From Microbotryum violaceum (lineage: Eukaryota), in the NCBI GenBank assembly GCA_001244265.2, contig LN717261.1, positions 1,379,591 through 1,443,590 of the forward strand: 64,000 nucleotides of DNA, in the 5' to 3' direction. This document shows positions 52,501-55,500 of this stretch, piece by piece. Numbering within the stretch: the first letter of the stretch is position 1; every line of letters begins with the position of its first letter. Made by a program: the position numbers.

Positions 52501-55500
52501 TTTAGAGCGGCGACCGTGAGCGTCCTTTGAGGAAAGTGAATTGTGTATGGACCAGGCTCCACGTTTCACATCAATCCTTCCCAGGAACCAGTGGTTCTCG
52601 TCACAGATTGGCAAAAACAGACCGAGTCGGGGTGTGCGCTGATGAACTCGGCGGTGCTTGCGATCCCGACGCAGTCGTGCCTTGCCCAGTCGGCTAGCCA
52701 CAATTCAAACTGATATTGTCCACGCAAACGTTGAACAGCAGATGAGTCGTCGGCATCCCATAATAGATTGCGTATGAGATGCAATCAGAAGGAACAAGTC
52801 CATATACTAGTATTGTCGTCGTGTGTTCGAGCTGCTGGGTGTGAATAATGCCTCCGATGAGAAAATTGATGAGTGTCTCGCCAACCCATTCATTGCCTGA
52901 TGAACGGAAAAGGAGAGCATACGATCAGACCATTGCTCATCAGATCATGGCGAGAAGGAGAGTGGCAAGAGTGGGCATGAGAAGGGTAAACTTACTGCAG
53001 TGAGCAAGTTCACAAGTCGCTTATGCCCCAGCTCGTTGCCCACGCCCGGTAACTCGTGCCACGGCAGGGTTAAACGTTCTTTCTTAGCCTTGTTGATGTA
53101 AAATTCGTCGTCGACCCACTTCTTTTCGATTTTCCTTCATCCACTCGAGCGCGTCTTTGATTCTTCTCCGCGCTTCGCACGAGAGGGGTCAATGAAGGTG
53201 TTGCAAAATGCTGTGCAGAATTGTTCGTTCCCGGAAACGATTCAGTCAAAGACATTCGACCATTGACACGCACGGAATCGCAGGGACCTACCGCAGCGAT
53301 GTAATCGCGAGGCGACACCACGTGAAGGGAGCGTCCGTGAGTCCTCCTCCGTATACTGGCGGGGCTTGAAGAGCGGAATCTCCTTTTCCAAGTTGGCCAG
53401 AAACTTTTTGACGGAAGACGCCGCAGGAAGGCCCTGCACGCCGAAAGCCTTGGCGAATGCAAGCATGTCGTCCAGCTCTTGCACGCCGACCCGGCGTTTG
53501 TAGGATCTGAGAAAAACGACGATGATTATCATCTATGTTCGCAAGGGGGTCAGCTCCTGGCCAATCGCGTGATTCCGGAGCAACGAGAGTAGATCGACGC
53601 ACGTTCTGACTGGGGAAGGGATACCAGGGATGCGACGAATCGGGCGCGCTTGTGTAGTTGCGTCCGCATCGCGCGGGTGCCTGTCACCACAGCTACAGAC
53701 AATAAGTTGGGACAAGTTGGGACATACTTGCGTTAGTGGGAATTTCACGAGGGGCATTGCATCATTGCTCGTCCCCACTCACTGATGGAGCCCGCAGTGG
53801 CCCAAGTCTGCACCCAGTCATCCGACTCTTCTTCCTCTGCCCCGCCATCGATCTCGACCTCGCTGTCGGACTTGGAGCCAGTGCCCTGGGAATAGGGCGA
53901 GCAATTGCCTTTTGGAAGGAAGAGGGCGTGGTCGAGAACGGAATCCTCGTGATCACTTGGCGGGGACGGACGTGAAGCAGGCACGCTTTCAGACGACTTG
54001 ATGATCTCGCCAGCGACAGCAAGCAGAGAGTGGCCTACTGTTCCGGTCTCTGCCGGATTTTGATTGAAATCGACCAAGTCCGCCTCGTCGCTGCTCGAGA
54101 GCGCCTGGGGCGTGGGTTGCAGTAACCGGTTCGTCCAATTGACAGCGGGATCGGCTCGACTGTTGTACGCGTCGAGGTGCTTCTTGGTCGTGGCGTGTCG
54201 AACGGCGCGACGATACCACTGCACATGCGTTCGCCACCACAGTACCGGCACACATAGCCGGCAGAAGCTCGCTGAGAGGACCATTCCAAAACAAAGTCTG
54301 TTAATGATGGCGATGAGGATGATGACACGATGAAAGTGTTCGTGTCAACGCGACTGCGAGCCGACGGCCGGGCGTGGGTCCGAGTGCCGCAAAGAGTCGC
54401 TACCACCCAGGTCGGCCGGGAACCATGACGTTGTTAGCACCCATCATTCTCCATGACTTGTTCCAAGTCCCTCGACTGCACGGACATGGTGTTCACTGTC
54501 GAGGGATATGTTGTGCCCGAAATTGTCAAATGGGCAAACGAAAGAGAGGGTGGGGCTCCGCGAAGGCGCCAGGGCCGCTCCAGCTGGCTCCTCTTGCCTC
54601 CTCTCTCACAACCGGTCGGTCTCAGCCCCCGCCGGGCACGTAGTGACAGGGGGGTCCCAGAAGTCGTTGTCACTAATGTCACTAAGTACCTAGGTAGGTA
54701 CTGGGTACCGGTCTAGACCCGGTCTACTTGCTTGTACTTGATGGCGACCCTGGAATATGAATGACAAGTCTGGAAGGCTATTTACGCACACGAAAATGCC
54801 GGGGCCCAACTTTGGCCCATGCGCCTCTTAAGTTTTGATAGGCTTCTTAGCCGGACTGCAGTGGGCTGTGGGCCGTGGCACGCCGATGGCCTGCCGTCGA
54901 CTGTATAGAGTTGTAGCGACTGCTCAAGCGGTGGTAAGGCTCTGATCAACGGACCAAGGAGACCAAACCAAGGAGTTGCTTGTTACACACCTGCTCAAGC
55001 ACTACAGTGAGTTATGATAGCTAGGAAGGTAAAGGAAGAAGGAAATGTAGTACTCACCTGCTCAAGCGGTGGTAAGGCTCTGATCGACGGACCAAGGAGA
55101 CCAGACCAAGAAATTGCTTGAGCAGGAGAGAGAGGAGCGCGGAGCCAGTTGGCTCGGGTTAGCGCGCGGCTGGGCCAGCCGCCTTTGTCAGGTGCACGGA
55201 CCTAGCCCAGGAAGGAAGAGAGCTAAGGTGTGGAAAGACAGGCCAAATGGGGGTAAAATAAGACCAAGAAAAGGAGACCTGATGCGAGAAGGAAACATAG
55301 GAGGCTGTCAATCTCACACACCCCCTACTTCGAGTATCAGGGAGCACAGACGCCAAGGCGACCGCGGTGCCGAGTAAAGAGGTCGCGAGACAATGCCTTG
55401 GTGAAGATATCCGCCGTCATCTCGCCAGTGTTGATGTATTGAACAATGATATCACCCAGGGACACCATATCCCGGACAAAGTTTTCGCGGAGGCAAATGT

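Follow-up and report, generated by a model that had tools for sequence, protein, structure and literature searches.

A retroelement whose replication passes through RNA should lose each intron spliced from that RNA, which is the basis of intron-marked retrotransposition assays. Retroviruses avoid this loss by packaging unspliced RNA, and Penelope-like elements are set apart partly by the introns that they keep. A 64,000-nucleotide stretch of the Microbotryum violaceum genome (contig LN717261.1; henceforth the window) raises the question of whether an element with true long terminal repeats (LTRs) could house an intron within the LTR itself. Here a degenerate copia-like retrotransposon copy, which we refer to as family D, has 138 bases near the end of its LTR that are made up of two abutting intron-like units. 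We suggest, at a little under an even chance, that these bases are the R/U5 end of a copia LTR carrying an intron of the 5' untranslated region (5' UTR), in which the segment just upstream, a, would be the repeated region R and the intron would be rebuilt through the copy of a within the unit, a'.

Two intron-like units near the end of family-D LTRs

The preliminary description of this locus reported two back-to-back units with intron-like ends on the minus strand. Both family-D LTRs in the window, D1 and its sister D2, match this layout letter for letter, and D2 retains both units at the lengths and positions claimed, one of 70 nucleotides (nt) starting with GTGAGC and one of 75 nt starting with GTGTGT (Table 1). 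In each LTR, segment a is followed by unit 1 (b) and then by unit 2, which consists of a short spacer and a'. In D1, TCGCTACA comes directly after unit 2. The D1 LTR ends between 54917 and 54902; its exact end after CAG/TCG (a slash marks a junction throughout) is uncertain, and the next 18 nt after this junction are only 50% alike in D1 and D2.

Family D is a Ty1/copia family. The pol fragments upstream of the LTRs carry the RVT_2 domain (E-values of 1.7e-40 for D1 and 1.4e-31 for D2), and a polypurine tract precedes a 3' LTR starting with TG. The D1 tract, GAAGTAGGGGG (55331-55321), stands directly before the LTR start TGTGTGAG, and the D2 tract GAAGTAGGGGGGGG is followed by the LTR start TGTGAGAG. 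The copy neighbouring family D has rve and then RVT_2, that is, integrase upstream of reverse transcriptase. Copia-like elements are reported to be the commonest LTR elements in Microbotryum (PMC4469406). D1 and D2 each stand directly behind a polypurine tract and, on the minus strand, a degenerate RVT_2 fragment of reverse transcriptase/RNase H, and are therefore 3' LTRs. The earlier placement of the units in an LTR-derived leader would therefore fit 5' LTR copies only. Within the window there is no family-D 5' LTR, and hence no leader; no further family-D copies were found there, and unit 1 occurs there in D1 and D2 only. An introner-like, multiplying intron would be present as the same unit in many host genes across the genome, of which this count covers the window.

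The same layout recurs in unrelated copia LTRs

A scan for local direct repeats detected D-like arrangements in further copia families, C/C2 and E3, whose LTRs cannot be aligned to those of family D. The common plan is U3, a segment a of about 60 nt, a unit made of a spacer (GTNNGY...) and a' (...YAG), and a short U5. A primer-binding site (PBS) with the gag ATG comes next, as shown for family C; the site of E3b after the LTR, GGTTATTCGCC, is PBS-like and degenerate, and is followed by a gag ATG at 62832. This recurrence supports the earlier claim that family D is an independent instance of the layout. The arrangement belongs to an LTR architecture that recurs non-randomly among Microbotryum copia elements, in which we infer that unit 2 of family D is the standard unit and unit 1 an extra one.

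Element C (46487-41570, minus strand) shows the hallmarks of Ty1/copia: paired LTRs, which are 99.4% identical, the PBS GGTTATGAGCC and a 5-bp target duplication, CTCTA, at 46492-46488 and 41569-41565. Its 3' LTR lacks precisely the 81-nt GTTAGT...CAG unit, so that the 5' LTR is 81 nt longer. At the two sites that distinguish a from a', the single a of this 3' LTR has the a-type letter.

The gag gene starts at an ATG within the PBS, GGTTATGAGC, which abuts the 5' LTR in both family C (46205-46215, minus strand) and copia family B (28787-28796, minus strand). The 5' UTR is therefore wholly LTR sequence. The PBS motif of family C includes the complement of the initiator-tRNA anticodon, and fungal copia elements are reported to prime commonly at the initiator-tRNA anticodon loop (PMC10886601). 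A tRNA-like or small-RNA-bearing LTR of the Helenus kind was considered and rejected; the excerpts of the same source report none in Microbotryum (PMC10886601).

The arrangement could in principle be meaningless decay, in which post-insertion duplications in dead copies acquired GT and AG ends by chance. D1 and D2 are degenerate and their LTRs differ mostly by transitions (65, against 27 transversions), as such decay would leave them. However, the layout is common to D1 and D2 at 78% identity and to three families, no other part is conserved as well as a and a', and element C has the layout too, with near-identical LTRs. We therefore regard decay as very unlikely.

The units carry splice signals like those of host introns

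We compared the units with introns of host genes, which are reported to be intron-rich in Microbotryum, with 5.6 exons per gene (PMC4469406). Five introns were mapped by spliced alignment of the CCT2 gene (at about 9700-7570; 99% identity to CCT-beta of Microbotryum intermedium and M. saponariae) to its homologue. Two more, in an actin-related gene and a Snf7-like gene, were set by reading-frame continuity. These seven introns are 65-76 nt long (mean 70), have GTNNGT donors in six of seven cases, and contain CTNAY-like motifs 17-27 nt before the YAG. By comparison, the seven LTR units measure 67-82 nt (mean 74). We then searched both strands with a strict pattern: YAG/GTNNGY, a length of 60-90 nt, and CTNAY 10-40 nt before the final YAG. 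The 128,000 strand positions gave eight matches, namely six LTR units (starting at 57123, 57053, 55057, 54990, 46307 and 62735) and two frame-confirmed host introns. The C2 unit misses the pattern on the branch motif alone. Spliceosomal GT-AG signals (donor, branch-like motif, acceptor, spacing and length) are host-grade in six of the seven LTR units.

The position of GTNNGY right after a is a stronger argument than this count. YAG/GTNNGY occurs at 33 of the 128,000 strand positions (2.6e-4), and in three families whose LTRs cannot be aligned it stands precisely where a ends; at a fixed position, a GTNNGY would be expected by chance in about 1 in 128 cases per family. All junctions lie on the sense strand of the element: CAG/GTTAGT in C, TAG/GTTAGT in C2 and TAG/GTACGC in E3 at the end of a, and CAG/GTGAGT, CAG/GTGAGC and CAG/GTGTGT in family D. 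In the spacer variants from other genomes, seen at loose contig ends and joints, GTGWGT is kept and the next letters vary. Judged by these signals, an intron reading of the LTR units is plausible.

Concerted evolution of segments a and a'

Comparing a with a' inside each copy gives 92-98% identity (59/63 in D1, 63/64 in D2, 58/60 in C, 55/60 in C2 and 54/55 in E3b), whereas between copies of a family the identity of these segments is 74-92% (58-59/64 in family D; 74-82% for C versus C2). We counted 13 alignment columns in which a and a' of one copy share a letter that differs between copies, three in family D and 10 in C/C2, and no column that separates a from a' across copies. The three family-D columns, against none that is paralog-specific, confirm the earlier observation that a and a' share copy-specific variants. 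Homologous spacers are shared by C and C2, and likewise by D1 and D2. Since a and a' are concerted yet their spacers are homologous between copies, the duplication is old and a' has been repeatedly reset. A plain tandem duplication was rejected, as the spacer is unlike the sequence upstream of a.

Unit 1 behaves differently. Between D1 and D2, identity is 93% in a, 94% in a' and 70% in U3. In b, the first 12 nt are 92% identical (11/12) and the last 23 nt 87% (20/23), against 59% (19/32) in the core (Fisher p 0.010 for ends versus core). The description of conserved junctions around differing interiors thus holds for b. Conservation of its core also differs from that of a and a' (p 1e-5) and, the disputed terminal stretch aside, is the lowest in the LTR. 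Unit 1 resembles unit 2 at the ends only (GTGnGTA and CTCAC..GCTTGAGCAG): the whole-unit alignment of the two beats shuffled sequences (p 0.007 and 0.0035), and the core is at shuffle level (p 0.74 and 0.61). We rejected b as a recognisable copy of a, given this core. The length of b fits a unit (67-70 nt, compared with 71-75 nt for unit 2), and b probably descends from an old copy of the unit in the middle position whose resetting has ceased, with only the donor, branch and acceptor ends kept.

These patterns bear on an explanation without excision. R/U5 sequence could have been duplicated by misaligned strand transfer, and expansion and contraction of the array could keep its copies alike; GTNNGY would then bind U1 small nuclear ribonucleoprotein (snRNP) to suppress a nearby poly(A) site, or serve as another signal. 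Forms with one unit (the C 3' LTR, E3a and the LTR at 14581-14780), two units (the C 5' LTR, C2, E3b and copies of other genomes without b) and three units (D1 and D2) all exist, as slippage between direct repeats would give, and asymmetric LTRs are reported to be common in a retrovirus, HIV-1, in 26 of 88 proviruses (PMC9278108). But the spacer was not copied from the sequence upstream of a, and a one-unit LTR cannot recover it, so diverged families would have to favour the long form. Slippage also predicts that the middle unit is the newest, whereas the middle unit of family D is the most diverged, and the branch-like motif, the YAG and the host-like intron size are left unexplained. We consider an unspliced array of either kind less likely than not, but one in which a U1-binding site governs the poly(A) site is still a serious rival.

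Copies without unit 1 exist in related genomes

Public sequencing runs offered a view of further copies. None of the 24 runs listed is recorded as RNA, and 20 of them contain part of the stretch, with 0.48 as the best share. Two, X16 and X17, which had been guessed to be RNA, covered all 30 bins. Run X16 was treated as DNA because its LTR-to-flank depth ratios (~68x and 150x) are like those of the DNA run X1 (~75x and 150x). In four runs, the depth of contigs over the a, b and a' bins is ~70-150x that of the single-copy flank, and family D is therefore abundant in related genomes.

The preliminary description predicted copies lacking one or both units exactly. This was borne out for unit 1: three contigs of run X16 go from ...CCTGCTCAAG directly into a without b, and a contig of depth 461 in run X17 (bin total ~2000) joins a to GTGAGTAAT and then to the next copy of a. 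Among the joints listed, none lacked unit 2 or both units together. Unit 1 is flanked by a 17-nt repeat, GCTTGAGCAGGTG(A/T)GTA. Its loss is ambiguous, because recombination between these repeats gives the same product as splicing followed by reverse transcription.

A proposed zero-length exon and a hairpin around segment a

Two units that abut at CTTGAGCAG/GTGTGT, an acceptor directly followed by a donor, had suggested recursive splicing, in which two introns would be removed successively through a zero-length exon and the splicing of unit 1 would recreate the donor CAG/GTGTGT. This junction is conserved in D1, D2 and the variant contigs, both units satisfy the strict pattern, and copies without unit 1 exist. 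However, two head-to-tail units yield the motif automatically, and a single excision of 138/145 nt (in D1, from GTGAGT to the last CAG) gives the same product. Known recursive splice sites serve very long introns, whereas the span here is only 138-145 nt (67+71 in D1). Recursion is not required, as one excision of 138 nt suffices. The zero-length exon probably arises as a consequence of two units lying side by side, and we find recursive splicing improbable.

The 11-nt inverted repeat described as bracketing a, CCTGCTCAAGC/GCTTGAGCAGG, is present in both D1 and D2. Positions 55121-55126 of D1 join a to complete the 5' arm of the hairpin. The stem-loop has a folding energy of -32.1 kcal/mol in D1 (z -4.8; equalled by 0 of 200 shuffles) and -30.1 kcal/mol in D2 (z -3.7; 1 of 200). 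It is strong only when the U3 letters are included (z -5.0 and -3.5), and a' without the 5' arm folds unremarkably (z -1.0 and -0.6). The 11-bp stem grows to 14-15 bp via CUC/GAG, taking in the GUGAG of the first donor. Analogous pairings in C and E3 are weak, and that of C is not convincing (z -1.6). A search of the region against Rfam gave only a sub-threshold microRNA match outside the units, and Tandem Repeats Finder did not recognise the units as a tandem array.

Such a hairpin recalls Tf1, and the first 11 nt of the transcript, CCTGCTCAAGC, could fold onto GCTTGAGCAGG and prime reverse transcription. The complement is perfect over 11 nt, the length reported for Tf1 (PMC7175516), and the stem-loop between the arms is stable. 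Against this, the 3' arm lies inside the LTR and occurs in 3' LTRs, whereas a primer site adjoins the 5' LTR on its outer side. RVT_2 marks the elements as copia and not of the Ty3/gypsy Tf1/sushi lineage, copia families B and C have an exact tRNA-type PBS, and the homology of a and a' begins within the 5' arm. We give self-priming scarcely any credence. The conserved hairpin site reported for GalEa (PMC5445492) and the one for Tf1 (PMC7175516) resemble that of family D in having 9-11-bp arms near a fungal LTR end; both lie at the primer site outside the 5' LTR, whereas the D hairpin lies inside the LTR, in 3' LTRs.

A model for an intron housed in the LTR

We return to the reading of the units as a 5'-UTR intron. 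The LTR is the only room for such an intron, because gag starts inside the PBS. Segment a (~60 nt) would be R, extending from the transcript start to the poly(A) site; the homology of a and a' begins at C/A in all families, and R of copia elements is usually ~60 nt long. The spacer and a' (69-82 nt; GTNNGY, branch-like CTNAY and YAG) would form a spliceosomal intron whose 3' part is a second R, and the stretch after a' would be a short U5.

In the transcript of the 5' LTR, the intron would be removable to give a/U5. In the 3' LTR, the acceptor would coincide with the RNA end at the poly(A) site, so that the unit would stay and the RNA would end in a'. Strong-stop DNA made from the spliced RNA, the complement of a-U5, would then anneal to this terminal a'. 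Minus-strand synthesis would continue through the spacer, a and U3, so that both daughter LTRs would regain the intron and the parental 5' a would overwrite a' in each cycle. One-unit LTRs would arise when the transfer lands on the first a. Three-unit LTRs would result if unspliced RNA gave full-length strong-stop DNA that then landed on a'. In family D, the hairpin draws on 6-9 letters from upstream of the proposed transcript start and would therefore form in the 3' LTR context only. There it would cover the first donor and the end of the first a, as the model requires. Landing of strong-stop DNA on a' would explain both the retained spacer and the 13:0 pattern at constant length, on which simple slippage models fail. 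The complete scheme, a self-rebuilding LTR intron with a copy of R inside it, hairpin masking in family D and a spliced mRNA that is also the replication template, is tentative, and we hold it to be possible rather than probable.

Several points weigh against this reading. Splicing of the units is predicted from DNA sequence, and the transcript start and poly(A) site are guesses. The strict pattern was composed after the units had been seen, and it has 98 matches when the exon YAG is left out. The family-D copies of the window are two, both of them decayed 3' LTRs. Metagenome and protein-guided scans recovered no external copies: a 28-letter pattern from a had 0 matches in the metagenome scan, and a scan guided by a 1041-aa pol protein matched 179 pattern stretches, none of which was confirmed. 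The hairpin arms are identical in D1 and D2 and so show no covariation. None of the 15 joints listed, out of 16, skips unit 2 or both units, and every exact loss (unit 1, the unit of the C 3' LTR and the unit of E3a) fits recombination or template switching between direct repeats equally well. Element C, with its long 5' and short 3' LTR, needs an extra event, because the model, like standard reverse transcription, gives identical LTRs; a later deletion or a slip of plus-strand synthesis would account for it, and LTR asymmetry is reported to be frequent in HIV-1 proviruses (26/88; PMC9278108). Finally, the layout is not obligatory, because copia family B in the same genome (28986-24255), with PBS and start codon as in C, has no unit.

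Relation to known systems

Taken as an analogy, Penelope is the closest system in function. In Drosophila virilis it is reported to carry a 75-bp intron in its pseudo-LTR, 46 bp downstream of the transcript start; the intron is kept in transposed copies, its splice sites are conserved between diverged copies, and its deletion abolishes reporter expression (PMC2377424). As described there, the likeness lies in a short intron, dozens of bases past the transcript start, within the terminal repeat of a retroelement. Penelope belongs to a separate class, in which pseudo-LTRs do not arise by reverse transcription and retention does not depend on a duplicated R, whereas the elements here are true LTR elements with RVT_2, a polypurine tract, a tRNA-type PBS and a 5-bp target duplication.

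LTR elements and retroviruses use the host spliceosome, as in the gag RNA of Drosophila copia, in BARE and in Ogre, with some donors in or after R. The introns of copia, BARE, Ogre and retroviruses span coding sequence or have an acceptor far inside the element. In phrase searches of the literature, which returned mostly abstracts, an intron lying wholly inside the LTR of an LTR retrotransposon was not found among the matches listed; nor did any of the Microbotryum papers among the matches listed describe an LTR-borne intron layout in the text returned.

The proposed rebuilding would be an ordinary strong-stop transfer between terminal copies of R, as in R-mediated first strand transfer, and switching of templates between direct repeats likewise accounts for forms with one, two and three units. 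It would differ in that, of two copies of R in the LTR, the second, intronic one acts as the 3' R, that the LTR is longer than U3-R-U5, and that the spliced RNA remains a full template.

The setting may be compared with Cryptococcus, a basidiomycete in which introns are reported to be needed for mRNA accumulation and transposon transcripts to carry poorly spliced introns (PMC3744415; PMC5851062). The comparison is with a basidiomycete whose expression depends on introns and whose RNA interference is coupled to the spliceosome. Cryptococcus belongs to another subphylum, the excerpts of these sources hold nothing on LTR-borne introns or a duplicated R, and a similar dependence in Microbotryum is possible.

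Features of the window

Table 1. Coordinates of the LTRs, repeated segments, intron-like units and hairpin arms (positions in the window; units and segments are given in the direction of the element)
Feature	Position	Strand	Description
D1, 3' LTR	54902-55320	-	Degenerate Ty1/copia copy; begins TGTGTGAG; RVT_2 pol fragment directly upstream
D1 segment a	55120-55058	-	63 nt; proposed R; ends ...CCACCGCTTGAGCAG
D1 unit 1 (b)	55057-54991	-	67 nt; GTGAGT, pyrimidine-rich core, CTCAC, GCTTGAGCAG
D1 unit 2	54990-54920	-	71 nt; spacer GTGTGTAAC and a' (54982-54920), end GCTTGAGCAG
D1 terminal stretch	54902-54919	-	TCGCTACAACTCTATACA; proposed U5; extent uncertain
D1 hairpin 5' arm	55116-55126	-	CCTGCTCAAGC; starts 6 letters upstream of the a/a' homology
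D1 hairpin 3' arm	55057-55067	-	GCTTGAGCAGG; spans CAG/G of the first donor-like site
D2, sister 3' LTR	56976-57451	-	78% identical to D1, gaps excluded
D2 segment a	57187-57124	-	Counterpart of D1 a
D2 unit 1	57123-57054	-	70 nt; GTGAGC; counterpart of b
D2 unit 2	57053-56979	-	75 nt; GTGTGT; counterpart of D1 unit 2
C, 5' LTR	46216-46487	-	U3, a, unit, U5, then PBS
C segment a	46367-46308	-	60 nt; ...GGGCCTCAG
C unit	46307-46227	-	81 nt; GTTAGT...a'...CAG; spacer GTTAGTCTTGCAATATACCGC, a' ending ...GGGCCTCAG
C U5	46226-46216	-	ATGTGCTAAAA
C PBS	46215-46205	-	GGTTATGAGCC; abuts 5' LTR; contains gag ATG
C, 3' LTR	41570-41760	-	Same element; reads U3, a, ATGTACTAAAA
C2, 3' LTR	15899-16163	-	~75% identical to C; a at 16040-15981
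C2 unit	15980-15899	-	82 nt; GTTAGT...a'...TAG; TAG/GTTAGTTACTTTGCAATACTTG and a'
E3b, 5' LTR	62504-62803	+	Family E3; a at 62680-62734
E3b unit	62735-62803	+	69 nt; GTACGC...a'...TATAG; TATAG/GTACGCTGAAATAG and a'
E3a, 3' LTR	59166-59398	-	Family E3; single a, no unit

D1 and D2 are spaced by 2133 bp and may be a tandem duplication of that length or nested insertions; a chain in which D2 inserted into D1, E3a into D2 and E3b into E3a may fit equally well. The E3 LTRs form a 233-nt inverted repeat (59166-59398 and 62502-62733; 98%), that is, two LTRs of one family in opposite orientation. The first serves as 3' LTR to a minus-strand pol copy whose open reading frame of 1041 aa (59396-62518) is intact, and the second as 5' LTR to a plus-strand copy with a gag that extends beyond the window. 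Together with D2 and D1, this pair looks like a nested-insertion chain. Where the D2 LTR gives way to the D1 pol fragment there is a 10-bp tandem repeat, CGGTTTAGAG, in 3.8 copies (56902-56939), with flanking palindromic GC-rich sequence.

The U3 of 11 of 12 LTR copies contains GCGCGC, which may be a shared promoter element. These copies belong to five unrelated families, copia families and the non-copia family A, and the exception is D2. They lie at 14581-14780, 15890-16163, 17189-17374, 22027-22212, 24255-24444, 28797-28986, 41570-41760, 46216-46487, 54902-55320, 59166-59396 and 62504-62803. Beside the 3' end of element C, 50-80-bp tandem-like repeats (GCGACTTTGGGAAATTGAC...; 40319-40987) are not LTR-related. 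The sole tRNA gene found in the window is a tRNA-Ser(TGA) (12781-12853, minus strand).

In run X17, which has uneven depth, one contig (~94% identical) skips 104 nt, 52897-53000. The gap adjoins a 99-nt GTAAGT...CAG stretch on the minus strand, with ends 5 letters off, and no reading frame spans it. It may reflect a spliced non-coding transcript or an indel between species.

Implications

If the model is true, a copia element that keeps a 5'-UTR intron through a copy of R inside it would be a third solution to the problem of intron loss, and its spliced mRNA and replication template would be one molecule, unlike in retroviruses. It would explain the LTR length variants and asymmetric LTRs of these genomes, and it would show how LTR elements can thrive in fungi whose gene expression depends on introns. 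Even without splicing, a donor-like site that recurs at the end of R suggests that U1 controls LTR transcripts.

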